Shown: positions 1,607 through 15,995 of the stretch, piece by piece
Numbering within the stretch: position 1 is the stretch's first letter
Layout: each line of letters opens with the position of its first letter
Assembly: GCA_903958115.1 (NCBI GenBank)
Contig: CAJBRS010000101.1
Location: 1-30,173 of the forward strand
Direction: 5' to 3'
Source of the DNA: an uncultured bacterium
GTDB taxonomy: Bacteria; Patescibacteriota; Minisyncoccia; Phycocordibacterales; CAWITU01
Length of the DNA stretch: 30,173 bases
Notes under the pieces: generated by a model
Database searches by the model: none
What the model was told of the DNA's origin: nothing
What the model saw: only the letters and a program-made list of their open reading frames with translations
Made by a program: the position numbers and the translations under genes

Positions 1607-2875
1607 ATGAAAATAATAAAATATACAGATAAAAATTACTCATCTCTTCTGAGTGAGTTGGATCGTAGGTCAGCCCCATCTCTGGAGGTTGAACAGTCCG
1701 TAAAAGATATTATTAAAAGTGTTCGCGAAGGAGGAGATGCCGCCCTTATTGAATTAACTGTGAAATATGGTGGTCCTCAATTGAAAGCTTCAGATCTTCT
1801 AGAGGTTCGTAAGCCAAAAGTGGATAAGTTAGTAAATGCAGCTCTCAAGGCTTCTTATACTAATGTTCACAATTTTGCATTAAAAAGTTTGAGAAAAGAT
1901 TGGAAGATGAAAAACAAAGAAGGAGCTACGGTAGGAGAAAGATTTGATCCTTTTCAACGTGTGGGTATCTATGTGCCAGGTGGAACAGCCCCTCTGGTTT
2001 CTAGTGCGATTATGACTGTTACATTAGCAAAAACAGCCGGCGTCCCAGAAATTGTTGTTACTACACCAGCTGATGTTTCCGGCAAAATAGATGATAATCT
2101 TTTATACGCTCTGCGTTTTGCCGGAGCAACTGAAATATACAAAGTGGGAGGGGCTCAGGCTATTGCCGCTCTTACTTATGGGACAAAAACGATCAGACCT
2201 GTTCAAAAGATTTTTGGCCCAGGAAATGAATATGTCGTCGAAGCGAAGAGGCAGGTTTTTGGATCAGTCTCTGTGGATTTGTTGCCTGGTCCAAGCGAAA
2301 TAATGGTTATCGCAGATAAAACAGCAAATTCATCATGGATTGCTTCGGATCTTCTTGCCCAAGCCGAGCACGGAAAACACAGCAAAATCATTTTGGTGAC
2401 TGACTCAGAGAAGCTTCTTGTTGGAGTCCAAAATGATATCAATATACAACTTGGTAATTTAAAAAGACAAAACTTTTTAGATGAAGTGTTGAAGAGTAAT
2501 TTTGAAATAGTTTTGGTTGAGTCAATTTCTGATGCTATAAACATTGCTAATAATTATGCCCCAGAACACGTTTCGATTGCTGCAAAAAATGAAGAAAAAT
2601 TAGCTAAAAATATAATGACTGCTGGAGCGATATTTATTGGTTCTTATTCTGCTGTGGTAGCAGGTGATTTTCTTGCTGGCCCTAGTCACACCTTGCCGAC
2701 TGGTGGTGCAGGAAAATCTTTTTCAGGTCTTACTGTAGATATGTTCCAACGACGCACTAGTATTATTAAGTTTGATAAAAAGGCAATAAAAAAATCAGTA
2801 CCAGTAATTAAAATATTTAGCGATATAGAGGGTTTGGATGCTCATGGTGAATCAGGGAGGGTGAGGGGTGAGTAG
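1607..2875 (+). CDS. hisD: Histidinol dehydrogenase
   Basis: Motifs YVPGG, GPGN, PGPSE, DLLAQAEH, APEH, GPSHTLPT and C-terminal LDAH; the Zn-ligand and catalytic positions are present. Confidence 0.95.
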   Translation: MKIIKYTDKNYSSLLSELDRRSAPSLEVEQSVKDIIKSVREGGDAALIELTVKYGGPQLKASDLLEVRKPKVDKLVNAALKASYTNVHNFALKSLRKDWKMKNKEGATVGERFDPFQRVGIYVPGGTAPLVSSAIMTVTLAKTAGVPEIVVTTPADVSGKIDDNLLYALRFAGATEIYKVGGAQAIAALTYGTKTIRPVQKIFGPGNEYVVEAKRQVFGSVSVDLLPGPSEIMVIADKTANSSWIASDLLAQAEHGKHSKIILVTDSEKLLVGVQNDINIQLGNLKRQNFLDEVLKSNFEIVLVESISDAINIANNYAPEHVSIAAKNEEKLAKNIMTAGAIFIGSYSAVVAGDFLAGPSHTLPTGGAGKSFSGLTVDMFQRRTSIIKFDKKAIKKSVPVIKIFSDIEGLDAHGESGRVRGE

Positions 2876-2897
2876 TAGTATGATATAGTTTTGGTAT

Positions 2898-3929
2898 ATG
2901 AAAAATCACAAACGCGGTTTCCTTGGTATTGCCACATTAATTGTCGTTGCCTTAGTGTTAATTGGAGGAGGGACGTACCTTGCTCTTAGGAGTAAAAACC
3001 AAAACCATACCAACACAGCAACTTCTAGTACAGATTACCAACAAGCGAACCGTACAAGCACCACTACTATAAATAATACGGAGAGCCCTAAATTTTCTCC
3101 AAAATTTGAAATTAGTTCTGTTAGTCCAAGTGTTGTAATAGTTGGAGGAGGGATTTCAATTCAAGGAAAAGGTTTTAGCAGTACATCTAAGCTTAATTTT
3201 TACAATAAAAGTCTTTTGAAAGATGGTGGAGTCGTCGGCTATTTGACTAATCCTGAATATGTATCATCTGACGGTACAGAGATAAGATTTGTTGTAAACA
3301 ATGATTTTTTTATCCATGGTCTACAATCTACTGCAGGTGCTTATCAGGTCGCGGTGTCGGACGCGGACGTTTCAAGTAATCTAGTTAACCTTACTGTTGT
3401 TGCCCCTACCTCGGCGCAAAATAGTGCCACCAAATATACTGATCCTACCTATGGTTTCGTTTTATATTATCCTTCGGCTTGGACACTTGTTTCGAAAGGG
3501 GAGAATAAAGATATCGGAATAATTAATTTTGATAACATTGGTCCTGACGGCGGAAATTCAATTGATGTGACTGTACAAGATGGAAACAAAGTTACTACTA
3601 CAGATAATAAATTTGGAGAAGTGAGTTATTTTTATGACACGCATGATGGAGAGTGGATGACAATTGGTAATGATGGTGTGACAAAGCCCGCTAAAATCTC
3701 ATATTACACAGTTTCAGGTTTACCAGTTTTTATGGGGACCAATCGTTGGAAAACAACTATTGTTGCACTCTCGACTACTAAATTCCTAGTAATTCATATT
3801 ACAGGTTCTGGCTGGACAGCTGTTGTAGATTCTCTTACGAAAACAGTACTTAATGTTGGGCAAGATATTGATCTAACAAAGATGGGTGCTGTAATCAGGG
3901 AGGAGTTGACTGCTTCGGTCAATCAATAA
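2898..3929 (+). CDS. Secreted/membrane-anchored protein: pilin-like N-terminal anchor, Thr/Ser/Asn linker, IPT/TIG-like domain, PsbP-like C-terminal domain
   Basis: KRGF followed by a hydrophobic helix; low-complexity linker; ISSVSPS..GGGISIQGKGF (IPT-like); KYTDPTYGFVLYYPSAW (PsbP-like start). Preceded by TGaTATAGT 8 nt upstream. Confidence 0.65.
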   Translation: MKNHKRGFLGIATLIVVALVLIGGGTYLALRSKNQNHTNTATSSTDYQQANRTSTTTINNTESPKFSPKFEISSVSPSVVIVGGGISIQGKGFSSTSKLNFYNKSLLKDGGVVGYLTNPEYVSSDGTEIRFVVNNDFFIHGLQSTAGAYQVAVSDADVSSNLVNLTVVAPTSAQNSATKYTDPTYGFVLYYPSAWTLVSKGENKDIGIINFDNIGPDGGNSIDVTVQDGNKVTTTDNKFGEVSYFYDTHDGEWMTIGNDGVTKPAKISYYTVSGLPVFMGTNRWKTTIVALSTTKFLVIHITGSGWTAVVDSLTKTVLNVGQDIDLTKMGAVIREELTASVNQ

Positions 3930-4358
3930 TTTTGTTAAGAACTCCTCAGTATAAAATGCTTTGTCTTTGGGGTGGGTTAAAATTGTTGTTACTAAATTTT
4001 TGTTTACCCATTTTATTTCTGATGTTATGTCATCTTCAGTGGAGACCTCTTCTTGTGAAGTCTTAAAAACAAAAAGGGTAATTTTTTTGTTTACTACTTC
4101 GATACCATTTGGCGTATAGACGTCAGAGGTTCTTACATAGCTTTCTAATTCTTTTTCTAAAATTAAGTCTTTTATTCCAGTCTCTTCCAAGATTTCTCTC
4201 TTGGCTGCTTCGAGAGGCGTTTCGTCTTTTTCTAAGTGGCCTTTTGGGAATGACCACGATACACTTCCTTGTTTTACTAAGACTATTTCATTTTTTTGAT
4301 TAATTATAATTCCTCCTGCACTGTGTCTTGTGAAAGTTTTGTTTTGAGTCGTCTGCAT
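3873..4358 (-). CDS. Nudix hydrolase
   Basis: Complete Nudix box FPKGHLEKDETPLEAAKREILEETGI. The 3' end overlaps the convergent 2898-3929 gene by 57 nt. Confidence 0.93.
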   Translation of the reverse strand: MQTTQNKTFTRHSAGGIIINQKNEIVLVKQGSVSWSFPKGHLEKDETPLEAAKREILEETGIKDLILEKELESYVRTSDVYTPNGIEVVNKKITLFVFKTSQEEVSTEDDITSEIKWVNKNLVTTILTHPKDKAFYTEEFLTKLLIDRSSQLLPDYSTHLC

Positions 4359-4427
4359 TGTTGATTGAAAAAATTAGAGTAAGGACTGTGCATTATACAG
4401 ACATAAAAAAATATTTGTAAGGGGAGT

Positions 4428-4436
4428 TTATCCACA
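4428..4436 (+). promoter_or_regulatory. Single perfect DnaA box (TTATCCACA)
   Basis: Exact 9-mer consensus in the intergenic gap between divergent genes; only one copy seen. Confidence 0.35.
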
Positions 4437-4460
4437 CTTTGTTTGTGATAAAATATATTT

Positions 4461-4739
4461 ATGATTCATATTTTAAATAGAGACGTTTATAAGGATGGGG
4501 AAAAGGTTGGTTGGGTGGAAGGAGGCCACATTTTTGAAAGTAGTGGCAAAAAGATCGGTTATATTTCTGGTAACGATATTTTTTCTTATTCTGGAAATAA
4601 AGTCGCTTATTTAAAAGGGACAGCTCTTAATAGGGTGGGGCACTCGATTGTTGTCCACACAGATGAGATAAATAAAGAGGTGACCAAGGGTGATTTTTCA
4701 GACCTTGAGAGAGCGGCTGTCTTTACTCTGTTTTCCTAG
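4461..4739 (+). CDS. Small hypothetical protein with ~16-aa beta-repeat (IFxxxGxKIGY)
   Basis: 92-aa ORF with TGaTAAAAT 6 nt upstream. Repeats VYKDGEKVGWVEGGH / IFESSGKKIGYISGND / IFSYSGNKVAYLKG. Confidence 0.7.
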   Translation: MIHILNRDVYKDGEKVGWVEGGHIFESSGKKIGYISGNDIFSYSGNKVAYLKGTALNRVGHSIVVHTDEINKEVTKGDFSDLERAAVFTLFS

Positions 4740-5151
4740 CGACGATCGCTGAATGTATTTCTGACGTGAGATCGTTGTTTATTTTGATTAACTCGTGCAC
4801 TTCATCTTGAATTTTTAGCAAAGCCTCAGCATCTTTGTATGTCTGCAGTGCTTGTTTGTCGGAAGCGGCCGCAGCAACCTTCTGTCCTACCATGATAACT
4901 GATAGAAGCACTAATTGTAGAAAGGTCTGAGCTAGCCAAGAAATAGAGGTGGCTATGCCGCCGTGAATAGCGGCAGGGAGGCTGATAAGAGCTATGATGG
5001 CAAAGATATAGGCGCACCACATTGTACCAACCGCAGCGGTTATTTTTGTTGCCAAAAAGCCGTTAAAACCTATGTGTTCATGTTTCGTTAGGTGAGGTCC
5101 GACTTTTGAACGTTCCTCGATACGAGGGTGGGGGATGTGTTGTTTTGTCAT
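4723..5151 (-). CDS. Small membrane protein, DUF1003-like
   Basis: Start moved to ATG 5151 (MTKQHIPHP) because TATAAT lies 6 nt upstream. Two hydrophobic segments, then FLQLVLLSVIMVGQ and a helical tail. The family resemblance is from memory. Confidence 0.65.
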   Translation of the reverse strand: MTKQHIPHPRIEERSKVGPHLTKHEHIGFNGFLATKITAAVGTMWCAYIFAIIALISLPAAIHGGIATSISWLAQTFLQLVLLSVIMVGQKVAAAASDKQALQTYKDAEALLKIQDEVHELIKINNDLTSEIHSAIVARKTE

Positions 5152-5210
5152 ACAATAATTATATATGTTTAGTTCTATAATCGGAAGCTCGTAAGAGTGA
5201 GTAGAATCCC

Positions 5211-5239
5211 TTGACATAGCCATATTTTTATGCTAGCAT
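5211..5239 (+). promoter_or_regulatory. Sigma70 promoter of the six-gene cluster: TTGACA-N17-TAGCAT with extended TG
   Basis: TTGACA 5211-5216; TG 5231-5232; TAGCAT 5234-5239. Confidence 0.7.
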
Positions 5240-5317
5240 CCGCACCAAACCTGTTTAAGTAAAACAGACTGTTCGTTGAAATTACGAACGCAACAAAAAC
5301 AAAAGGAGAAACAGACT

Positions 5318-6691
5318 ATGCCAACAAAAGCGGCACCAACTACCAGTACACCACCCGACAGTGGCGATGTTTTCGCCCGTCTTCGTCAACAAACTGATGT
5401 GGCCCTTGGCCGCGTTCAGGAGGATCGGACAACGACCCAGGAGGTTATTACCGAAATCAACACTCTTGAAGCCCAGATGTCTGAGGCTTCGAAGGTGACA
5501 GATGACACAGCCCGTGCTGCAAAAATTCGCGCTCTGACCGAGACGACACAGCAACGCGCAGCTCATATTCAGACCGAACGCCAAAACCTCGCAAGAGCCG
5601 TTGCCGGCGTTGAGGCCATGATGAGTGGAATGAGTGCAGAGTTTCAAAAACTCACTCAAGTCACACCCGAGCAGACTGCTCGAATCGAAGCTGCCAAGAA
5701 GGCCATTGTGGATGCGGAAGATGCTGTCACTACGGCGGAGAATACATCCAACATCAGATATCTTCTTTCCGGAGGCAAAGTCAAAGCGGTGAAAGCCGCT
5801 AAGGCTTTGTTGAAGGAGGCTCAAGACCGTTTGCCGATTGTAAAATCGCAGGTGGACGAAGAAGTTCGCGATCGCCTCATGAACGCTAATTTCGAGATGC
5901 TCTTTGCTGAGCTTTCGAATCGCTCAATGGGGACGGCCGCGATCTTGCGCGAAGATGTCAAAGAGGCGGGCGCCAAGATTGAAATCGTGGAAGCCCGTCT
6001 CAAGACGTGTTTGGAAGAGCGCCAAATTGCTACGGAAGCGTTGCAAGAGCTCCGCCAGAAGGTCGAAGAGCAGGAGGCAATCCTCAAGCAAGAGGAAGCC
6101 CACCTTGTTGACTTTGTTTCGGGTACGGCAGATTACTCCACACAGGACTCCAAGATCAAAACGATGCGTTCCGACATCCAAAGGCTTATTAGTCTCCGCC
6201 AGGAGGCGACGGCAGCCTTTGAGGTCAAGGAAAAAGCGGTTGAATACCACGAGGCGAGTCTGAAAGGACTCGAACAGTTGCGGGGAAATCTCCGCACCTG
6301 GATTACGAAGCTTGAGCTGGAAACGGCCGAGCAGAATATTCTCTTCAGTGTTCGTCTGACCACCATGAAGTTGCATGCCGACGAAGACGCCGGCACTCGG
6401 ATTGATGGAATGAACCGTGAAGCGCAGATTGGGAGCTTGGAAGACATCATCAAGATCGCTCGGATTTCCGGCGATCGTGCTGTCGCCATGTTTAAAGGGC
6501 ATCCGGAAACCATGCAACGCATTTCGGCTCTCAAAGCGGCTCAGGCCGAAGACATTGCCAAATTGCGGAAGGAATTCGCCGACATCTACGCTGACTTGGA
6601 GGCCAAGCACGGGATTGCTTTCGGGGCGGACAGCTCGTTCACCTACGATGGTCTCGTGTCCCAGCCAACCGGAGAGCCGGCAGCGGCCTAG
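5318..6691 (+). CDS. Long coiled-coil protein of unknown function (gene 1 of AAA+ cluster)
   Basis: Start moved to ATG 5318, after AAAAGGAGA. Almost wholly helical, A/E/K/Q/R-rich with heptad character, disordered termini, no TM helix. Confidence 0.85.
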   Translation: MPTKAAPTTSTPPDSGDVFARLRQQTDVALGRVQEDRTTTQEVITEINTLEAQMSEASKVTDDTARAAKIRALTETTQQRAAHIQTERQNLARAVAGVEAMMSGMSAEFQKLTQVTPEQTARIEAAKKAIVDAEDAVTTAENTSNIRYLLSGGKVKAVKAAKALLKEAQDRLPIVKSQVDEEVRDRLMNANFEMLFAELSNRSMGTAAILREDVKEAGAKIEIVEARLKTCLEERQIATEALQELRQKVEEQEAILKQEEAHLVDFVSGTADYSTQDSKIKTMRSDIQRLISLRQEATAAFEVKEKAVEYHEASLKGLEQLRGNLRTWITKLELETAEQNILFSVRLTTMKLHADEDAGTRIDGMNREAQIGSLEDIIKIARISGDRAVAMFKGHPETMQRISALKAAQAEDIAKLRKEFADIYADLEAKHGIAFGADSSFTYDGLVSQPTGEPAAA

Positions 6692-6713
6692 GCATTAGCA
6701 CACAACCTACGAG

Positions 6714-6751
6714 AGGGGGAGGAGGACACAAAACCTCCTTCCCCTTTTTTT
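6714..6751 (+). terminator. Intrinsic terminator between cluster genes 1 and 2
   Basis: 12-bp stem AGGGGGAGGAGG/CCTCCTTCCCCT with one G-U pair, 8-nt loop, T7 tract. Confidence 0.75.
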
Positions 6752-6784
6752 CTGAAACGATAAACGAAAGGAAAATGAAAAACT

Positions 6785-7906
6785 ATGCCAGACACAATGG
6801 AAAAAGAGGCTGAAGCCATGATGCTTCCCCAAGACGGGGACTATAAGCGTTACTTCAGTCTCCTTGAGCGAACTTTTGCTTACCTTCGTCGGTGGCAAGA
6901 TTCTCGTATCAAGAATCAAGACCTTGAGCAACTTGCCATCTATGACATGTTTGCTCGGATCCTCTACACTATCCAAGCTCTTGAGATGAAATATTCTCAT
7001 TCTCTTGGTAAAAAGATGATCCTTGATCTTCACTCGTCGGGATTTCCTCATGCTGTCAGTATCATTGAAATGATGGCGGACATGAAGGCAACGCAACGCG
7101 TTGGTCCTGTCGCAAAAGAAGAGACAATACGTAATCAAATGCTTGATCACATGTTTGCTGAACACAAAAGGCCAGATGAGCTTATTGCTCTGATGGCTGA
7201 CGTGAAGTATCACGAGATGCTTGATCCCAAAAAGATCATTCAGCAATTCACTCCCGGGGGGCTTGTCCTTCTCGGAAAAGAATCAGGTGTTCGTCACTAT
7301 TTGTTCTCTTGGCTTTGCTACGATCCTGAATCGAACATTCCTCATATCCACGTCATGCTCTTTGAGCAAGACGAGGAAGTGGAGTTTCTCGAAGAAGGCT
7401 CGAGTACTTATGCAGAATTTATGAAGGCGGTAAAAGCCTTCGGTTCGCATGTGCCAAAACAGATCAATCTTGTTCTGTCCGATCTCGATCGGACAATCAA
7501 CTGGATTCATCCGAAAATGTTGGAGCGATGGAAGATCGGGCCAATCTTGTCTGAGTTTTCTGCTGATGCGGAAACGAAGCAGCCGCTTCTAGTACCACTT
7601 CGGCAATGGGGTAGTCTTGAGGATTTCATCCTCTTGATCAAGGTTGAACTTTGCAATTCAATCTCGGAAAAACAAATCAGCGAAGGGTGGTTGGAATCAG
7701 TGCTTGGTTCGAAAGTTCGTCAGATTTTTGGAGTAAATCAGGTTGATCCTGACTGCTTCGAATCGGGCGCGACGAGTATTACTCGGTACATGATTCTTCC
7801 ACATCACGTTCTACAACACCTGGATCCTTCTGTGGAGGCTTACGAAAAATATGCCACCCATAAGAGGGTTCCTTATCAAGGAGACGACATTCATGAAATC
7901 GACTAG
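6785..7906 (+). CDS. Conserved hypothetical protein (gene 2 of AAA+ cluster)
   Basis: 373-aa ORF, soluble alpha/beta composition, purine-rich leader (GAAAGGAAAA); overlaps the ATPase start by 14 nt. Confidence 0.82.
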   Translation: MPDTMEKEAEAMMLPQDGDYKRYFSLLERTFAYLRRWQDSRIKNQDLEQLAIYDMFARILYTIQALEMKYSHSLGKKMILDLHSSGFPHAVSIIEMMADMKATQRVGPVAKEETIRNQMLDHMFAEHKRPDELIALMADVKYHEMLDPKKIIQQFTPGGLVLLGKESGVRHYLFSWLCYDPESNIPHIHVMLFEQDEEVEFLEEGSSTYAEFMKAVKAFGSHVPKQINLVLSDLDRTINWIHPKMLERWKIGPILSEFSADAETKQPLLVPLRQWGSLEDFILLIKVELCNSISEKQISEGWLESVLGSKVRQIFGVNQVDPDCFESGATSITRYMILPHHVLQHLDPSVEAYEKYATHKRVPYQGDDIHEID

Positions 7907-9845
7907 CAGTATTCCGATTTTGCCGGAACAGCTGACACCTTATCTCTCGCCTGCGAACCTCCAGTTGACGAAGACTAGTTATCGTCCGCTGAAAGGTTTC
8001 AGGCAGGGGAATGGTGAAAGCTGGACGACACTTCTCGGGAGTCAGCAGGTAGAACAGGAGGTTAGCATCGTCAACACCATTAAGGTGGTCATCTGCAAGG
8101 ATGCCCTTCTCATTGGTGAGAATGCTAACGCCGTTCTTCATGCTCTTCGTATGGGTTCTTGTCTCGGTGCATATTTGGCTGATCAGTATAGCCAAGCATC
8201 GGGGCTCGAAGCCTTTAAATTACGTGAATCGAAAAGGGATAGCCTCAGTGCCTTAACGGGTGCTGAAGCCGCCGAGAAAAACCAAAAAAATGGTACGGCG
8301 GGTGCGATTGCTCTTTTTGTGATGTCAGCCTACGTCGTCTGGAAGCTTGGAAGCCTGCTGGATTCGAAAGCGGATTCAATGCAGATGGAACAACCTGCGG
8401 TGCCTGAAACTGTTTTGACAAGCGCGATTGCTTCAACAAAGTGCGCGCTCTACTACTACGGTTTCTATCTGGAAAAAAGTGGATTGGTGAGGAACGAGAT
8501 GGAACTCGTCAAAATCACTTCCCTTTATTTTCAGCAGGTGATGAAGGAAGTTCAATCGCGGGTGCCGAGTCTTCGTTTTACGGAGGCATTCACCGAAGTC
8601 AGCTATCGGCTCAAGGATACAGAATTTGCTATCGATGGTTTCAAAGAACCGTCGTCGGCGATTCTGCCCAAGGTCGTAGCACAACGTGTGGAGTTTGGTC
8701 GTATCGTGGGTAACCACGCTGCCAAGCACACTATTCAACGAGTTGTGGATCGGTTGTGTTGCTATGATCCCATTGCTGGTGCAAATCCTTTTAGCCGTTT
8801 TGGCGGAGTGATTTCCTCAGCAATGGGTTGTGGTAAACCAGGGACGGGCAAGACTCTTCTTGGTAGCGCAGCCTCAACACTTCTCAGTGATCGGTGTGAC
8901 CAGATTGGTTTGCCATACCGATTCCACGAATTGCCAGTCGCCCTGATCTCAAGTTATCAAGGCGATACTGACAGAAACATGTCTGCTTACTTCGAGCCAT
9001 TCTATGACAAGTCAGGAATCTTGCTCGGTCTCTTGGATGATTGCGAAGGCATCTTCCTTAATCGAGCGTTTCCACATGTTTCGGAAGGGCAGAGAGCTGC
9101 CATCAAGGTTTATCTGACCAAGACCGAAGGAGCTAGTGCTCCTCGTCTCGGCAATAGCTTGATGTTGTTCCTGACAAATATGCCGGATCAGATTGATCCA
9201 GCTGTTATGTCTCGTCAGCAACTTCGCTTCAAAATCGAAGGGGCTGAAACGGAAGCCGACTTTGCCGACCAGATAAGGATGGGAGTAGAAACCTATGACA
9301 AGGTGGATCCCAAATTCGTTGGCCTCGCTGACATGTCAGGGTACAGGTTCTTGGAAGCTCAGAAGCAAAGGACGCTAGCAGCGCAGTTAGCGGAGAGCGT
9401 AGAGCTCACTGATGACCGGCTAATAAAGTTGGAGAAGGATGCTAGGGCAAGCTACTCGCTTGATAATCTTGGCTACTTCGCCACCCTCTTTAAACTTCTG
9501 CTTGGGGCTTATCCGCAATTCAGCTCCCGCGATGTGCGTAACATCATGGTGGCCGCGGACAGTCGAGTGATGGATTTCGATCTACCAGGGGAGTGGTTCA
9601 CTAATCTGGACCTATTCTTCGCTAAGGACTTTGAGTCCAAGGTTGAGATCTTGAAGAAGTACATCAGGGAATGTATGGGGAATGTTTCATATCCCCAAAT
9701 CTTGCGCCAAGAGGTGGTGAAGTATCTCAACGTCTTCGTGACGATGGAGAACACTGCCTTTCAGCGTAAGGTTGATCAACGCTTGGAGGAATTCAAAGTC
9801 CACCAGGCAGCGACAGCTGCGTTCGAGAAGTTCGTCGGTAAATAA
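7893..9845 (+). CDS. AAA+ ATPase with large N-terminal domain (gene 3)
   Basis: Start moved to ATG 7893, after AAGGAG. Walker A GKPGTGKT (8832-8855), Walker B-like LGLLDDCE, sensor-1/SRH LTNMPDQIDPAVMSR, sensor-2-like FSSRDVRN. Confidence 0.9.
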   Translation: MKSTSSIPILPEQLTPYLSPANLQLTKTSYRPLKGFRQGNGESWTTLLGSQQVEQEVSIVNTIKVVICKDALLIGENANAVLHALRMGSCLGAYLADQYSQASGLEAFKLRESKRDSLSALTGAEAAEKNQKNGTAGAIALFVMSAYVVWKLGSLLDSKADSMQMEQPAVPETVLTSAIASTKCALYYYGFYLEKSGLVRNEMELVKITSLYFQQVMKEVQSRVPSLRFTEAFTEVSYRLKDTEFAIDGFKEPSSAILPKVVAQRVEFGRIVGNHAAKHTIQRVVDRLCCYDPIAGANPFSRFGGVISSAMGCGKPGTGKTLLGSAASTLLSDRCDQIGLPYRFHELPVALISSYQGDTDRNMSAYFEPFYDKSGILLGLLDDCEGIFLNRAFPHVSEGQRAAIKVYLTKTEGASAPRLGNSLMLFLTNMPDQIDPAVMSRQQLRFKIEGAETEADFADQIRMGVETYDKVDPKFVGLADMSGYRFLEAQKQRTLAAQLAESVELTDDRLIKLEKDARASYSLDNLGYFATLFKLLLGAYPQFSSRDVRNIMVAADSRVMDFDLPGEWFTNLDLFFAKDFESKVEILKKYIRECMGNVSYPQILRQEVVKYLNVFVTMENTAFQRKVDQRLEEFKVHQAATAAFEKFVGK

Positions 9846-9867
9846 GTACAAAATTACGCAAAATAAC

Positions 9868-9903
9868 ACCGGTGGGGAGAAGCAATTCTCCTCACCGGTT
9901 TTC
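9868..9903 (+). terminator. Intrinsic terminator after ATPase
   Basis: 14-bp stem ACCGGTGGGGAGAA/TTCTCCTCACCGGT with one G-U pair, GCAA tetraloop, T-rich tail. Confidence 0.75.
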
Positions 9904-9914
9904 TGTTATTCCTA

Positions 9915-9942
9915 TTGACTTTACTGTATTTTATGGTAAAAT
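9915..9942 (+). promoter_or_regulatory. Internal sigma70 promoter for genes 4-6: TTGACT-N16-TAAAAT with extended TG
   Basis: TTGACT 9915-9920; TG 9934-9935; TAAAAT 9937-9942. Confidence 0.65.
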
Positions 9943-10017
9943 AGGCAACAAACTACGTAAAAAAACGTTTTCAACCGGTCTTTGACAAAAAGATCACAAC
10001 AAAGAAAGAAACACATA

Positions 10018-11301
10018 ATGGACAAACTTATAGCTGCGAACTTGTTTGGAGATCAACTGGCTCGTATTGACTCACCTGAGCTTGTGGGTCGGTACAATGA
10101 GTGTCTGAAAGCTATTGGCTTGGAGCCAACAAAGCTCGAGGCGTTCAGTATCGATGGTATCGGCTGGAGTCCGCAGATTGCTCAAGAAAGGAAGCGCATC
10201 AAGTACTTCTCAATGGGGACGGCGGCACAGTTCGGTATTATTTTAACACCAGCTCAAAAAGGCTTACCCATTTTCACGCCGATTAATTCGTTTGATCGGT
10301 TGGTGATGGAAAAGTATTTTCGCAATTTCGGGAAACACGTTTCTGATCTGACAAGTCGCACAGGCCTTTGGCTCGACTTCAGTCATGATTTGCTTGAATT
10401 TCAATCGCCACTCGATCTCCTTATGGTTGATTCGGTGGTGGTGCGTTCAGCAGACGTTGACGGCTTAATGGAAGCTGCTCGTCAGCAACGGGAACTTGAC
10501 CGACAATTTCGGAGAGCTGAAAAAGCTTGGCAGGATGATTCGCTCATGAAAAAAATCTGCGACAGCGCGGAGAAATACGGAGACCTTCGTTTCCGGGCGA
10601 TGATCATTCCTGACCTTCCTTTTTCGGACTTGCGTTGTTTTGTGACGCAGGCCTTTGGCGGAGTTTATGTTTTTCGGGACACCCCGAAGAACGGACCGCT
10701 TTTGGTGACTGTCGATGATCAGTACAAGCCGATGTCGGAAGATACGGCGACCGTATATCATGCGAGCGATAAAGAATTACCAGCAGTCCTTCTTAAGGAG
10801 GGAATAACGGATGTTCCGCTCGGTTGGTATAAAAACCATCTTTCTGCTCTCGAAGAAATTCGGGACTTTCACATCGTTGACGCCTATTACAAGGCTGGTA
10901 ACGGTGATGTTGAGTTCCAAAATCTCACTTCGGCGCAATTGAAACAATGGATTGCTGGCAATTTGCCAGCATTACCAGTGTGGTTTTCTGAGCTTGGACG
11001 GCTGATCGCTCAGCTTCGTCAAAAGACTTCAGTCAAGACAATCAAAATCTCTCATGAGCTCTCCGCTATCCTGATGCGCCCGTCGCATCAAGTTGCAGAA
11101 TCGCCTGGTGCAGAGGAAGTCACGCTGCAGCTCTTGGCTCGGCTTGACCCAACTGACGTAGAGCGGTTGTATGTTCACAACAAAATTCTCTTCTACGACC
11201 TCTATCGGGGTTGGTCGGAAGGTAAGAAGAAGTGGTGCATCAACTATCTCACTAGTCGCGGACATCCGCGGCACATAAACGCAGAGAAAGACAAGAAATA
11301 A
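10018..11301 (+). CDS. DUF6638-like protein (gene 4)
   Basis: Start moved to ATG 10018. The N-terminus (LFGDQLARIDSPELVGRYNECL..FSIDGIGWSPQI) and FVTQAFGGVYVFRD match my recollection of DUF6638; not verified by search. Confidence 0.7.
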   Translation: MDKLIAANLFGDQLARIDSPELVGRYNECLKAIGLEPTKLEAFSIDGIGWSPQIAQERKRIKYFSMGTAAQFGIILTPAQKGLPIFTPINSFDRLVMEKYFRNFGKHVSDLTSRTGLWLDFSHDLLEFQSPLDLLMVDSVVVRSADVDGLMEAARQQRELDRQFRRAEKAWQDDSLMKKICDSAEKYGDLRFRAMIIPDLPFSDLRCFVTQAFGGVYVFRDTPKNGPLLVTVDDQYKPMSEDTATVYHASDKELPAVLLKEGITDVPLGWYKNHLSALEEIRDFHIVDAYYKAGNGDVEFQNLTSAQLKQWIAGNLPALPVWFSELGRLIAQLRQKTSVKTIKISHELSAILMRPSHQVAESPGAEEVTLQLLARLDPTDVERLYVHNKILFYDLYRGWSEGKKKWCINYLTSRGHPRHINAEKDKK

Positions 11302-11323
11302 AAACGGAAGGAAATAAAAAAAC

Positions 11324-11929
11324 ATGAATCAGTTTCATTCGGACATGTACTATGCCAAAAGTTGGCTTATGGGGTTCTACCTCCTCGCCATCATTTTGGC
11401 AGTCCTGGATCGTTGGCTTGCTACCATCATCTACGGCTGGACGCACGAAAAAGTTAGTGGAAGTTCTGCGCCGCCAACTAAGATCAAGGGTTTGATCTAC
11501 GGTCGGCGAGCATGGACTTGGTTTGTTCACGGAATTATTCTTTCAACACTACAGACAGTTTTCATTACGCCGCTTGTCCTGACAACTCTCAGGAATCCGG
11601 CCATTGAGCTCGTTCTGTGGGTTACGGAAATATTCATTGTCATGATCGGTTATCTTACCGCAAAGGTGGTTTACCGTTTTGGTGGACCATTTATATGTTG
11701 GACTTTCCGTATTACTGAAAAGGTGGATACGGGGGAACTACATGTGACGGAAACCGTAGAAGAGCAAGTCGAGCAAGCGAAGAGCTGGTTCGGCAGGCTG
11801 GTGGCAAAAATCAAAGGTTTGAAAAAAACCAAGCCGTCGGTTATCTCTGTACCACCTCCGACCCCGAAGCCAAAACCTTCGGCGGCCGATATCGAGCGTG
11901 ACATCAACAACTACACGGGAGGTCGTTAG
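11324..11929 (+). CDS. Membrane protein with ~3 TM helices and a Pro/Lys-rich cytoplasmic tail (gene 5)
   Basis: Hydrophobic stretches in the N-terminal two-thirds; tail KKTKPSVISVPPPTPKPKPS. Confidence 0.78.
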   Translation: MNQFHSDMYYAKSWLMGFYLLAIILAVLDRWLATIIYGWTHEKVSGSSAPPTKIKGLIYGRRAWTWFVHGIILSTLQTVFITPLVLTTLRNPAIELVLWVTEIFIVMIGYLTAKVVYRFGGPFICWTFRITEKVDTGELHVTETVEEQVEQAKSWFGRLVAKIKGLKKTKPSVISVPPPTPKPKPSAADIERDINNYTGGR

Positions 11930-11930
11930 C

Positions 11931-13514
11931 ATGACAGAAAAAAATGTGAAGGAAAGAGGAGCGATATTCTGGTTGGCGAAAAATCTGACCGGGGCATTGC
12001 TCCGGTTCACTGATCGGCACTGGATTATCAAGGTTGTTTCTTTGATCTTTGCGGTACTTGCGGTGGTGTTTGTTTTTATCACCCGTGCCGCCTGGCAACC
12101 GATCGTTTTAGAGGTTCGGCTTCATACCCCGCAACTCTTTTTCGGTTTGTTGCTTTGGATCGTGATGAGCACACTCTGGCGAAGTCGCCTGCGTAAGGCA
12201 TTTTGGATTATCGCTGTGTTGACAGTGGTGATGTTCGGATTGGTCGAGCGTTATAACCTCGATCCAGTTCAGTACATTACTCTGTACCTGCGGTATAAGT
12301 CCCTCGATCTGAAAGAACTCAGCGACTTGCCAGAGACCGATCACGAACGCGTTCAGCCTCTTCATTCAATTCGAATGGTGGCTGGTGAAAAAATCACCAT
12401 TGCCGAGCGTGCTTCAGGCCCGAACTTTGTTCGGGTTGGTAAAGATCAGTATCGTTTTACGATGGCCATCGAGCCGTCGTACAACGTGCCGAGGTTGTTT
12501 GGAAACATTCAGGAAATCTTTAATTTGTCGGCGACGTCGCCGGCCTTGGATTTTTCCACTAGTCGAGAGAAGGTACAGTTTGCTGTTGGTGAAGGTTTGC
12601 TGTGGGGCAAGAGTGCTCACGTGAACGTCATCAACACCTTCGGTCTCTTTAAATTTCTCGGCTACAAACCAACTGAGGTGAGATACATCACTGATGATTC
12701 GGGAGCGTGGGTGGAAGTTATTCCTCTCATCCGGTATACCGGTTTATTCCCGCATCCAGAATTTGGGGGTGTTCAGATCATTCATCAAAGTTCTGGTGGA
12801 TTCTGGCACTCCCTGAAGAGTTTGTTTGTTGGTGATGGCTACTGGATTCGTCCTCGCGATATTGGAAAGTTTCCGTATCTGCGCGGACAAAATCTCATCC
12901 CGACTGAAGTTTCCCGTTTTATGGCGGAGAGCTTTAAGTTTCAGGGAGGAATTCTGGCACCGTTGCCAGGGTTTCATAGCGGAGATTTACGTGTTCCAGA
13001 TTTGCCTGGGGATCAGAATGATCAACCATACGTCACTTACGACAGGTTTACCCCTGGTGTCGGTGATGGTAACAAGCTGTATCACTACTTCGCCCTGCAG
13101 GCCTTCCAGAAAAACAGTGAAGGTCTGAACACTAGTCTCTTCGTGCCGGCAGACGGCATTGGGCAGATTGGTGTGTACAGGCATTCTGAGAGGCAGGATG
13201 GATTAACTGGTATCACCGCTGTCGATCCGATGGTTCGTGATAGTCAACCGATGTTCGATTGGTCCTCGAAAGGGACAGCTGAACATCGACCATTCATCCG
13301 AAAGATCGATAGCAAGACGAGGTTCTTCTGGCTTTCGACAGTCGTGACTTACAAAGATGCGAATGGGAAAAAGGCTGGCGATTTTATTGCCGGCACAATT
13401 CCATTGGTAGCTTTGACGGACGCATCCTCAAGGAAAGTTGTTTGGGTCGATGCCGACAAACCAAAAGAATGGGCTGGCCAAGTTGAAAAAGCGATGGGCA
13501 GTATCTGGAAATAG
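11931..13514 (+). CDS. Membrane-anchored protein with large extracytoplasmic beta-rich domain (gene 6)
   Basis: Start moved to ATG 11931, after GGGAGG at 11917-11922 and 1 nt after the gene 5 stop. About 3 N-terminal hydrophobic segments, then a ~400-aa Gly/aromatic-rich domain. Confidence 0.8.
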   Translation: MTEKNVKERGAIFWLAKNLTGALLRFTDRHWIIKVVSLIFAVLAVVFVFITRAAWQPIVLEVRLHTPQLFFGLLLWIVMSTLWRSRLRKAFWIIAVLTVVMFGLVERYNLDPVQYITLYLRYKSLDLKELSDLPETDHERVQPLHSIRMVAGEKITIAERASGPNFVRVGKDQYRFTMAIEPSYNVPRLFGNIQEIFNLSATSPALDFSTSREKVQFAVGEGLLWGKSAHVNVINTFGLFKFLGYKPTEVRYITDDSGAWVEVIPLIRYTGLFPHPEFGGVQIIHQSSGGFWHSLKSLFVGDGYWIRPRDIGKFPYLRGQNLIPTEVSRFMAESFKFQGGILAPLPGFHSGDLRVPDLPGDQNDQPYVTYDRFTPGVGDGNKLYHYFALQAFQKNSEGLNTSLFVPADGIGQIGVYRHSERQDGLTGITAVDPMVRDSQPMFDWSSKGTAEHRPFIRKIDSKTRFFWLSTVVTYKDANGKKAGDFIAGTIPLVALTDASSRKVVWVDADKPKEWAGQVEKAMGSIWK

Positions 13515-13551
13515 TTGCCAGAAGAAAACAACTAAAACAATGTTAGTAACC

Positions 13552-13592
13552 GACGCGAGTCGAGGTTCAACCCTCTTCTCGCGTCTTTTTTT
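13552..13592 (+). terminator. Intrinsic terminator closing the six-gene cluster
   Basis: GACGCGAG/CTCGCGTC outer stem, GAGG/CCTC inner stem, T7 tract; ends 2 nt before the stop of the convergent gene. Confidence 0.75.
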
Positions 13593-13594
13593 AC

Positions 13595-15214
13595 CTAGTT
13601 TTGAGGCGTTGGGAGAATGGTAAATGAAGATGGGGCACTTTCTCCACCACTTGTTTCTACTGTTAGGGTGTACACACCAGGTGTCACGACAAGAAGGGTA
13701 TTAGTGCAAGCTGAACCTTGCTGTCCAAATAGGTTACAAGCAGATTTTGTAATTGTAGGGATAGTGAATGAGAGATTTTTCCCGTCAGAAGATGAAATAG
13801 GGTCTCCGATGATTCTTTCGTTTAGTAGTACAAAAGTTTTAGATGTAAAGCTGCGTCCAACAAGACTTACCGATGTGCCAGTTTGGCCAGAAGTTTGCGA
13901 TTGACCGTAAATTGCCGGGATAGGATTGTTTGCGTTTGGATCGGCTCCAACTACAATTGTGAACTTTCTCGAAGCAGTGTTGCCGTCGAGATCAGTAACA
14001 GTAACAGTAAAAGTAAAACTTCCGGCAGTTTGAGGAATTCCATAGATTACAGAGGGTGCCATGTATCCGTTGACGCTGTTATTCAAAGATAAGCCGGTGG
14101 GTAAACTACCACTAGAGATAGACCATTTATAATCTTTTTGGAAACCTCCCGCAGAAAGATTTGTATCGTAGAGTACTCCTATATTTGCAGATGGTGTGAA
14201 GTCACTTGTTATGTAGTACTTTGAAAATGATGGGGCGATAACTGTGAAAGGTAATTGGTTACTGAAGTTCTTTCCGTCGTTACTTACACTTACACTCGCT
14301 GGTCCGTAACCTGCTCCGATTGGTACAACAAAAACAAGAGATGTTCCGCTAGGATCGACAGAGGTTGGGTTTATTTTAATGTTTTGCCCATTACCTAAAT
14401 ATACTGTACTAGATGCTGTAAAACTATTTCCGTATACGGTCACGGATGTTTGTCCATCATTTGCTGCTGTTACCGAAGAGAGGCTACTTATAGAAAGAGG
14501 CTGGTAGTTTGATGTTTTGGCAACAATATAAAATTGTGAGATATCACTCACACGTTGCTTCGTATTTGATTGCTCTAGAAACATTTTATAATAGCCATCA
14601 CTCAAAATAGCTTTGGAAAAATCTGGAGTAAAAGTACCTGCTGAGTTTATGATAGCTCCGGAGCTCGGTGTAACATCCCAAGTCCCAGATGGATCGGTTC
14701 GGCTTAGAATCGCAATAAATGTTGATGAGGATTCGCAATTTACATTGTTCCAAGTAGGGTTAATGGTGTCTGTGTTTAGGTCAAATCTTTGGTTTAAATA
14801 AGGAGAAGTGAAATTAACACTGCAAGCTGCAACAGCTGGTGTGGCCGTTGGAGTATTTACAGACGGGTTTGTGTTTGATTGTGACGCTGTTCCGCTACAG
14901 CTCAAACTTTTTAAGGAGTTTCTTGTAGTTGGCCCAACATAACCCGTAGAAGATATGTTGTTATCACTTTGGAACTTTTGTACAGCCTTTAGCGTCATTG
15001 TTCCAAAATATCCTGATGGGGAAGTACTTAGATAGTTGGTCTGTTGTAAATATGTCTGTAATTTTGTCACACTCCCCGCAGTCTGAGCATCTCTTGCTCC
15101 TTGTCTCAGGTTGTATGATAGATCTGTGCAAGATGTGCTAGAGGCGTTAGCTGAGTTGATAATGATTATTAATACTAAAGTTGCTGTTGCTAGGAATAAG
15201 ATTTTTTTAAACAT
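13595..15214 (-). CDS. Secreted surface protein: peptidoglycan-binding domain, IPT/TIG domains, putative Ig domain
   Basis: Signal peptide; LRQGA..VTKLQTYL..GYFGTMTLKAVQKFQ..GYVGPTTR (PG_binding_1); YKWSISSGSLPTGLSL..GSFTFTVTVTD (Ig-like). TATAAT lies 6 nt upstream of the ATG. Confidence 0.85.
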   Translation of the reverse strand: MFKKILFLATATLVLIIIINSANASSTSCTDLSYNLRQGARDAQTAGSVTKLQTYLQQTNYLSTSPSGYFGTMTLKAVQKFQSDNNISSTGYVGPTTRNSLKSLSCSGTASQSNTNPSVNTPTATPAVAACSVNFTSPYLNQRFDLNTDTINPTWNNVNCESSSTFIAILSRTDPSGTWDVTPSSGAIINSAGTFTPDFSKAILSDGYYKMFLEQSNTKQRVSDISQFYIVAKTSNYQPLSISSLSSVTAANDGQTSVTVYGNSFTASSTVYLGNGQNIKINPTSVDPSGTSLVFVVPIGAGYGPASVSVSNDGKNFSNQLPFTVIAPSFSKYYITSDFTPSANIGVLYDTNLSAGGFQKDYKWSISSGSLPTGLSLNNSVNGYMAPSVIYGIPQTAGSFTFTVTVTDLDGNTASRKFTIVVGADPNANNPIPAIYGQSQTSGQTGTSVSLVGRSFTSKTFVLLNERIIGDPISSSDGKNLSFTIPTITKSACNLFGQQGSACTNTLLVVTPGVYTLTVETSGGESAPSSFTILPTPQN

Positions 15215-15272
15215 AATTTAATTATACATTAATTATAATGTATTTTGGTTTTTCCTGTGGTACAATATTTTT

Positions 15273-15995
15273 ATGCAAGAAAAACAATCACAATATTTTA
15301 TTCCATTAGCTATTATTATCGCCGGTGGTTTTATAGCGTTTGCTATTTATCTTAACAAAACCCCACAACCTGGCACTAACCCAACTGCTGCCAATGTTGC
15401 TAATCAGCAGGCTCCTGCAGCCGTTGATATTAAGAATGTTAGTTTCGGTGCTGATCCATATATAGGTGATAAAAATGCGCCTGTTACTTTTGCTTTGTGG
15501 ACTGATTTTCAGTGTCCATTCTGCAAGAGGTTTGAAATTTCAAGTGCTGGAGCTTCTGCTCCATTGGATGATCTGATTAAAAATTATGTTAAAACAGGAA
15601 AGGTAAAAATTGTCTTCAAAGACTACCAATTTCTAGGACCAGACTCGATGACAGAAGCTGTATTCGCGCGAGCTGTATGGGATTTGTATCCAGATAAATA
15701 TTTCGCTTGGAGAACAGCTGTCTTTACCGCACAAGACGGAGAGAATTCTGGCTTCGGTGATGAGAAGTCTGTTGTTGTTTTAACAAAGACTGTCAGTGGT
15801 ATTGATACTTCAAAGATAGAGCAGGCAATTTCACAGAAAAAGGATGCATATCAGCAGGCGATTGCTGCAGATTTGTCCGAAGGAAATAAGTTTGGTGTAA
15901 ATGGAACCCCAGCATTTATCATTGGTAAGCAACTCTTTAGCGGGGGAATGGCTTATGCAGATCTAGCTAAACTAATCGACGCTCAACTTAAATAG
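15273..15995 (+). CDS. Membrane-anchored DsbA/BdbD-family thiol-disulfide oxidoreductase
   Basis: N-terminal TM helix, DFQCPFC active site, cis-Pro GVNGTPAF; TGgTACAAT 6 nt upstream. Confidence 0.9.
   Translation: MQEKQSQYFIPLAIIIAGGFIAFAIYLNKTPQPGTNPTAANVANQQAPAAVDIKNVSFGADPYIGDKNAPVTFALWTDFQCPFCKRFEISSAGASAPLDDLIKNYVKTGKVKIVFKDYQFLGPDSMTEAVFARAVWDLYPDKYFAWRTAVFTAQDGENSGFGDEKSVVVLTKTVSGIDTSKIEQAISQKKDAYQQAIAADLSEGNKFGVNGTPAFIIGKQLFSGGMAYADLAKLIDAQLK

Follow-up and report, generated by a model that had tools for sequence, protein, structure and literature searches.

The cluster, its conservation and its origin

The 30,173-nucleotide (nt) stretch of DNA analysed here (the window) is one whole contig of a freshwater Patescibacteria genome (724,501 bases in 133 contigs, 93% complete), and our subject is a cluster of six co-oriented genes within it, named g1 to g6 in order of transcription. 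They encode a helical protein (g1), an AAA+ ATPase (g3), two further soluble proteins (g2 and g4) and two membrane proteins (g5 and g6). An earlier note, made from the letters of the window alone, had described six genes of these sizes with an overlap of 14 nt between g2 and g3 and a gap of 1 nt between g5 and g6; all are present as forward-strand open reading frames (ORFs), the overlap and the gap follow from their coordinates, and both gene set and layout are confirmed (Table 1). We found that g1-g4 travel together in all lineages that carry them, that their membrane partner is exchangeable (g5 and g6 here, a DUF2333 protein in rhizobia), and that the system as a whole is new and matches nothing described, while its motor is ordinary.

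Table 1. Genes and putative transcription signals of the cluster (positions are those of the window; aa, amino acids; bp, base pairs; TM, transmembrane)
Feature	Positions	Strand	Basis or remark
P1, promoter-like site TTGACA-17-TAGCAT with TG	5211..5239	+	consensus match only; 79 nt 5' of the g1 start
g1, 457-aa helical, heptad-periodic protein	5318..6691	+	ORF; ATG at 5318 preceded by the ribosome-binding site AAGGAGA
Hairpin of 15 bp, GC-rich, with U7; terminator or attenuator	6711..6752	+	between g1 and g2; dG -30.1, z -5.79
g2, 373-aa soluble protein, family-less	6785..7906	+	
g3, 650-aa single-module classical AAA+ ATPase	7893..9845	+	PF00004
Intrinsic-terminator-like hairpin of 14 bp with T-rich tail, 3' of g3	9868..9909	+	z -6.61
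P2, promoter-like site TTGACT-16-TAAAAT with TG, 5' of g4	9915..9942	+	consensus match only
g4, 427-aa DUF6638 protein	10018..11301	+	PF20343
g5, 201-aa membrane protein, about 3 TM segments	11324..11929	+	hydropathy
g6, 527-aa membrane protein	11931..13514	+	hydropathy and model
Terminator hairpin with U7, closing the cluster	13552..13592	+	z -3.47; right edge of the GC island

The same note had divided the cluster into two units, each with its own promoter and terminator. The two promoter-like sites are there, each with an extended -10 TG, and strong hairpins follow g1, g3 and g6. The promoter scan as a whole did not rise above chance (6 sites, against 8.8 expected from shuffled sequences), and thus only the placement of P1 and P2 speaks for them.

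The distribution of the cluster was assessed with hidden Markov models of the six proteins, run on all ORFs of 80 loci that were fetched through DUF6638 (the family of g4) from contigs of one genome per species, a sampling in which DUF6638 relatives are encoded in at least 516 stretches. The same gene order was recovered in about 75 of the 80 loci and in four phyla, with a g1 homologue as the leading gene in every phylum, and the succession g1-g2-g3-g4-g6 recurs in nearly every complete locus. The slot of g5 is occupied by an ORF of 175-260 aa with about three TM segments in the 30 inspected loci that have both g4 and g6. Among the Patescibacteria the carriers are two Buchananbacteria (a g3 homologue is named from Candidatus Buchananbacteria), one unclassified member and one of the Saccharibacteria; colinear clusters were also found in Desulfuromonadales, one unclassified Bacteroidota genome, Chitinophagales and about 70 Flavobacteriaceae. 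Relatives of DUF6638 occur on Vibrio megaplasmids and in sulfate reducers too, and Desulfonema magnum has g1-g4 alone. No further neighbour gene conserved across the phyla was found. Hence, the prediction of a self-contained, co-inherited system is borne out, as its genes keep company across phyla and in an order that recurs far beyond chance.

The four-gene version that the earlier note had named for the Rhizobiales exists as well, including in Sinorhizobium meliloti. In the alphaproteobacterial loci, a gene for a DUF2333 membrane protein (matched in one locus, L005, at E 1.9e-20) stands behind g1-g4. In S. meliloti 1021 the locus lies between tdk and fhs, where SMc02735 (362 aa), SMc02734 (382 aa) and SMc02733 (638 aa) are the homologues of g1, g2 and g3, and a small additional gene, SMc02732, is present. 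According to a study of transcription starts, tdk-SMc02735-34-33-32 form an operon with experimental support, and a start site, preceded by CTTGTC-N19-TTATAT, was mapped at 2,590,165 (PMC3616915, supplement). The entry stands among sigma-70-like entries of a supplement file that opens with the table of sigma-70 (RpoD) promoters, although RpoH and RpoD motifs are alike, as its authors caution (PMC3616915). A CCTATAT-like -10 box is carried by the alphaproteobacterial loci. Apart from one regulatory screen, to which we return below, no paper text discussing the S. meliloti homologues was found, and they are not listed in the accessible part of the transposon-sequencing supplement files of a study on NCR peptides.

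In the genome under study the cluster stands out by its guanine-plus-cytosine (GC) content, which is 0.486 against 0.385 in both flanks (genome-wide 3-kb windows: mean 0.403, standard deviation 0.023), and by the GC content of third codon positions (GC3), which lies between 0.47 and 0.585 in the six genes versus 0.27-0.36 in most flanking ones. This excess is shared by the other Patescibacteria loci and is not seen in Flavobacteriaceae or alphaproteobacteria. DUF6638 was detected in none of 40 relatives and in none of 400 evenly drawn other Patescibacteria. In a tree of g2, g3 and g4 combined, the Patescibacteria are not monophyletic, with the Buchananbacteria grouping with Desulfobacterota (83-94% support), and this conflict with taxonomy indicates several transfers. 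Judging by composition and phylogeny, the cluster is a gain by horizontal transfer into this Patescibacteria lineage; no integrase, repeats or other mobility genes were found at the edges of the island. A relative 84-90% identical, recovered from other samples, harbours the island between the same neighbours, a 19.8-kb contig from an independent freshwater run covers window positions 2500-15682 at 98.8% identity, and no island-less joint was found in four metagenome runs, which together rule out an artefact of assembly. It recurs, moreover, in independent lake and pond metagenomes.

Rarity and foreign origin in Patescibacteria (0 of the 400 others, raised GC3, a tree at odds with taxonomy) are also what one would expect of an anti-phage or abortive-infection system, an alternative raised by the earlier note. 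In such a system the soluble proteins would sense infection and g3 would activate g5 and g6 as membrane-damaging effectors. Membrane proteins are common effectors in defence, and PADLOC-DB 2.0 yielded weak matches of g3 to IetA and to TRIP13 (21 bits each; E 3e-5 to 9e-4) and of g1 to LmuB (E 0.025), with none for g2, g4, g5 or g6. The g3 matches are, however, a generic likeness of the AAA core (E 3e-5 or weaker) with scores far under the family cut-offs (NCBIfam IteA: E 0.005, 16 bits versus a cut-off of 510), and the cluster lacks the IetS protease of IetAS and the HORMA and cyclase partners of CBASS. No nuclease, protease, NADase or toxin domain was found in it, neither g4 nor g6 has a relative in the phage genomes and IMG/VR viral contigs searched (where the system was not found and the only matches were generic AAA ones), and the four metagenomes hold no island-less variant. 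The Flavobacteriaceae weaken this alternative. Here, 62 of the 201 species sampled (31%) have DUF6638, the cluster stays beside an ABC-F gene in 46 loci, and mean identities among six genera amount to 88% for g1, 84% for g3, 78% for g6, 71% for g2 and 68% for g4 (92% for the neighbouring ABC-F). Such slow, vertical evolution with kept synteny fits a role in cell maintenance better than an arms-race gene set, and we thus regard a defence function as quite unlikely.

The motor and its partner proteins

Among curated families, only g3 (AAA) and g4 (DUF6638) found a match; NCBIfam, PADLOC and PHROGs added nothing beyond generic AAA or coiled-coil likeness, in agreement with the former statement that the cluster corresponds to no named system. 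Within the classical AAA clade, g3 is nothing out of the ordinary. It matches PF00004 with 36.2 bits (cut-off 21.2; E 9.5e-9) over residues 327-462 of a long ORF, and shows a Walker A (GKPGTGKT), a Walker B (DDxE), a pore loop (ISSYQG), a sensor-1 (TN) and the arginines of the second region of homology (SRH). Kept across 79 homologues are the Walker A GxPGTGK[T/S], the pore loop S(S/T)(Y/F)QG, the sensor-1 TN and two SRH arginines (SR...R(F/W)), as is the Walker B DDxE (DDxD in alphaproteobacteria). A family-specific C-terminal extension is likewise conserved, reading FSSRDVRN and MDFDLPGEWF in the window (family MDFxLPxxW). The ATPase motifs that the note had quoted for alphaproteobacteria are correct: ISSYQG is identical there, and FSSRDVRN and MDFDLPGEWF correspond to FTGRAIKN and MDIELPDEWF. 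As its Walker A, sensor-1 and arginine fingers are all intact and its aromatic pore loop is conserved, g3 has the equipment of a hexameric, polypeptide-threading motor. It consists of one AAA module and not of a tandem D1-D2 (TIGR01243: 12.8 bits versus a cut-off of 802). A TM anchor within its N-domain was considered and rejected, since the hydrophobic stretch seen in the window is not conserved in most homologues, and the ATPase is therefore predicted to be soluble.

Profile searches with the two soluble partners, g2 and g4, against PDB sequences returned nothing, and the two are not paralogues of each other (hhalign probability 0.2%). The match of g4 to DUF6638 is strong (PF20343: E 2.7e-38, 132.4 bits where the cut-off is 27, spanning positions 2-394 of a profile of 439), but this family has no described function and we found no paper in which the term 'DUF6638' occurs. 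Its AlphaFold model is confident (pLDDT 87.6, pTM 0.83), being alpha/beta in its N-terminal parts and helical in the C-terminal one, and Foldseek found no solved relative of it in the PDB (best E 1.6, TM-score at most 0.11). The invariant residues of g2 include SGFP, W176, N184-x-P186, D235, P243-K, R248, G252-P253 and P339-H340...Q344, and its one marginal PHROG match (E 0.003) is to a PHROG of unassigned function. In a language-model look-alike search, g2 scored 0.90-0.92 with clusters of which some carry the annotation YagK_YfjJ_C or REP_ORF2-G2P, and the window's g2 contains HIHVML, which together could suggest a rolling-circle Rep (HUH endonuclease) like YagK/YfjJ or inovirus gp2, and hence a replication module of a mobile element. 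This HUH-like motif is, however, not conserved (HVNVML in a 90%-identical relative, YIYIMA or MVFLAT in others), no conserved tyrosine motif accompanies it, no g2 relative matches those Pfam families at E <= 1 and the edges carry no mobility genes. Thus, the catalytic motifs refute g2 as an HUH Rep, and the chance that the cluster is such a replication module is negligible.

Of the membrane proteins, g5 comprises about three TM segments and a charged, proline-rich C-terminal tail, and g6 begins with a helical/TM bundle (about three TM helices) that is followed by some 400 non-membrane residues, beta-rich in the model. By the positive-inside rule, this large C-terminal domain is probably located outside the cell. 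Although the AlphaFold model of g6 is confident (pLDDT 81, pTM 0.82), Foldseek against the PDB gave beta-propeller-like noise only (TM-score at most 0.22, no credible match) and a profile search against PDB sequences gave nothing; in BFVD there was a single strong match, to an unnamed viral protein of 588 aa (A0A6G5YLZ4; E 2.9e-16, TM-score 0.56, 13% identity). The g6 family is small: in a set of 1.84 billion proteins it counts 281 representatives at the level of 50% identity. We rejected both g5 and g6 as DUF2333 proteins (no Pfam match to PF10095 at E <= 10, no BLAST match to the rhizobial partner), and g6 as a half-size UPF0182 protein (PF03699), for which hhalign gave 0.6% against one sequence and 2% against a 14-sequence alignment, again with no Pfam match at E <= 10; the link between g6 and UPF0182 is an indirect structural look-alike from a protein atlas only. 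Within the Patescibacteria, UPF0182 proteins themselves show very strong conservation (70-100% identity across 910 aa in the 120 clusters listed, P0162-P0281). One of the 31 genomes sampled from this order carries such a protein (L092, contig G028:C18), and none was found in the genome of the window.

The first gene, g1, has no Pfam family, but its designation as a coiled coil or helical protein is justified by its few prolines (three between residues 14 and 449) and its heptad periodicity (a hydrophobic 3.5-residue period above the 95th percentile of shuffled sequences in 31 of 58 windows). Both termini are conserved, the C-terminus with a (K/R)(Y/H)GI(D/A) motif and an aromatic tail behind it. 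The hairpin that separates g1 from g2 occupies the same position in all Patescibacteria lineages and in many Flavobacteriaceae, its stems being unrelated in sequence; it is missing in alphaproteobacteria, where the gap measures 9-26 nt. A hairpin at this place predicts that g1 should exceed the downstream proteins in amount, and its recurrence with unrelated stems looks like selection for an excess of g1 over the other products.

Major-subunit genes typically come first and have an attenuator behind them, which, together with the conserved termini of g1 and the large outer domain of g6, allows for an export or surface-assembly function, in which g1, as an excess structural subunit, would be unfolded by g3 and passed through g5 and g6 into an extracellular or envelope structure. 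We consider this very unlikely. Neither a signal peptide nor a TM segment was detected in g1, g5 and g6 have only about three TM helices each, the alphaproteobacteria replace both by an unrelated single membrane protein, and, to our knowledge, no classical AAA-clade ATPase drives secretion.

As a separate observation, another contig of the genome of the window (C84) bears a gene for a PspA/IM30 protein (L090:1492-2076, forward strand, running off the contig end), which exceeds the cut-off of PF04012 (E 6e-13) and of which no match was seen in 30 related genomes. The contig is short (2.8 kb, GC 0.42), and the gene may equally be a second acquisition or a contaminant of binning.

A putative membrane-tethered machine

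We infer, tentatively, that the cluster specifies an AAA+ machine, tethered to the membrane, which remodels g1 assemblies and serves the upkeep of the envelope rather than defence against phages. The g1 protein would assemble on the inner side of the membrane, and g3 would disassemble or recycle these assemblies as a threading motor, with the conserved C-terminal tail of g1 as the probable point of entry; g2 and g4 would act as adaptors or regulators of g3. The membrane proteins g5 and g6 would anchor or trigger the machine, the outer domain of g6 might couple it to the cell exterior, and its likely role would be the maintenance of envelope or membrane under stress. This remodelling model fits the conserved aromatic pore loop of g3, the recurrent hairpin behind g1 and the presence of a membrane pair.

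The closest parallel in logic is that of Vps4 and ESCRT-III (archaeal CdvC/CdvB, with PspA/Vipp1 as relatives), where a classical AAA+ ATPase with an aromatic pore loop acts on a helical, probably self-assembling partner at the membrane, and where the conserved C-terminal tail of g1 would correspond to the handle for the motor. The likeness to ESCRT-III/Vps4 or PspA invoked by the earlier note survives as such an analogy and is not supported as homology, because g1 shows no PspA, Snf7 or TelA signal and g3 has neither MIT nor Vps4_C. In addition, g1 is twice as long as PspA, Snf7 and IM30 and without sequence relationship to them, and the present cluster differs from Vps4/ESCRT-III by two extra soluble proteins of unassigned fold and two dedicated membrane proteins. 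Two other AAA+ systems, NSF/SNAP/SNARE and ClpV with its VipA/VipB sheath, similarly combine a motor and adaptors in dismantling a helical assembly at a membrane machine; here too the relation is one of analogy only, with no family-level match of any partner protein to NSF/SNARE or ClpV/VipA/VipB components.

Several observations weigh against this model. PspA_IM30 (PF04012), Snf7 (PF03357) and TelA gave no match at E <= 0.05 in 22 relatives of g1, and a profile of g1 aligned to the PspA of its own genome reached an hhalign probability of 0.5%, by which g1 as a PspA, ESCRT-III or TelA protein is rejected at the level of sequence. On the side of the motor, Pfam returned PF00004 alone and no MIT, Vps4_C or CDC48_N domain was found in g3; its N-domain of about 300 aa is of unassigned type, with a single marginal match in a PDB profile search (a TPR domain, E 0.002), and the Walker B DDxE in place of the canonical DE means that hydrolysis may be unusual. 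The distant relatives of g6 are solitary, with no ATPase beside them. The selection for an excess of g1 is read from sequence only, and g5/g6 or some unrelated membrane protein might just as well be the client of the motor.

The last point leads to an alternative in which g3 would serve the quality control or extraction of membrane proteins, in the manner of Cdc48 in endoplasmic-reticulum-associated degradation or of Msp1, by pulling out damaged or surplus membrane proteins (g5/g6 or others), with g1 as a scaffold and g2 and g4 as substrate adaptors. The nearest solved relatives of g3 are in fact the D2 module of Cdc48/p97 (E 4e-11), followed by Mpa/ARC (Mpa, E 2e-5) and the Rpt subunits of the proteasome. 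Cdc48/p97/VAT with its Ufd1-Npl4-type cofactors, and Mpa/ARC, thus provide the best sequence matches, and the pairing of a motor with two soluble partners recalls the Cdc48 cofactors. The cluster, furthermore, always ends in membrane proteins that differ between lineages. To these may be added that ChvI, a regulator of envelope stress, bound a DNA fragment inside SMc02733 (2,587,012-2,587,177) in an in vitro screen by electrophoretic mobility shift assay (PMC3687685), though the fragment is intragenic and comes from a screen in vitro. Set against Cdc48, g3 is a single module with no CDC48_N, a DDxE Walker B and a C-terminal extension of its own, and its partners are unrelated to the known cofactors. 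The cluster contains no protease or degradation partner, and extraction would leave the apparent excess of g1 unexplained. We therefore hold this alternative to be unlikely, and retain the remodelling of g1 assemblies as our working model.

In its broadest form, the claim would be that g1-g4 with interchangeable membrane partners constitute an unrecognised, widespread machine for membrane remodelling or envelope maintenance, a counterpart of ESCRT-III/Vps4 or NSF/SNARE built from folds unseen in solved structures; we deem this possible but doubtful. If it were true, a widespread bacterial machine would have gone unstudied so far, and it would bring new folds (at least two partners have confident models with no solved match), AAA+ adaptor biology of a new kind and, possibly, a novel means of handling membranes. 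Such a machine would, moreover, be useful enough for capture and retention by an ultra-small Patescibacteria genome: the cluster takes up 1.1% of a genome of 724 kb, in a reduced cell with an envelope unlike that of the diderm hosts, and its being kept there implies a function that requires neither an outer membrane nor a rich host proteome. In S. meliloti, the operon SMc02735-SMc02733 offers direct genetic access to the question.

Surroundings and lineage-specific additions

Just left of the island, the window encodes a 92-aa 'beta-flower' protein (4461-4739, forward strand; PF21784, E 4e-7), found in the same position in the close relative, and between this gene and the island lies a 166-aa ORF of no family (4723-5223, reverse strand). 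The closest relative (a 29-kb contig) has a 446-aa gene with a TPM_phosphatase domain directly 3' of g6 (L003:9895-11235), of which the window is devoid, and its flanks add genes for an ABC transporter and a shikimate dehydrogenase that are missing from the window. These differences between the neighbours suggest that the neighbourhood is being reshuffled or reduced. Elsewhere in the genome, a single stretch (contig C93:1-8000) has an island-like GC content (0.48-0.52 in 3-kb windows), and it may be a ribosomal RNA operon.

The clusters of Flavobacteriaceae are interrupted between their genes by small extra ones (a four-helix protein like 23S-rRNA-IVS/bAvd, a NUDIX hydrolase and a GIY-YIG nuclease), exemplified by the insertions in Algibacter (L052:6849-7208, 9201-9818 and 11301-11609) and by similar gaps in many loci of this family; they look like passengers or selfish insertions outside the system. 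Two loci of the Buchananbacteria type (L002:1081-3097 and L007:916-2868) have three consecutive small proteins with 2-3 TM segments directly 5' of g1, which the window lacks and which may represent an extra, lineage-specific membrane module.

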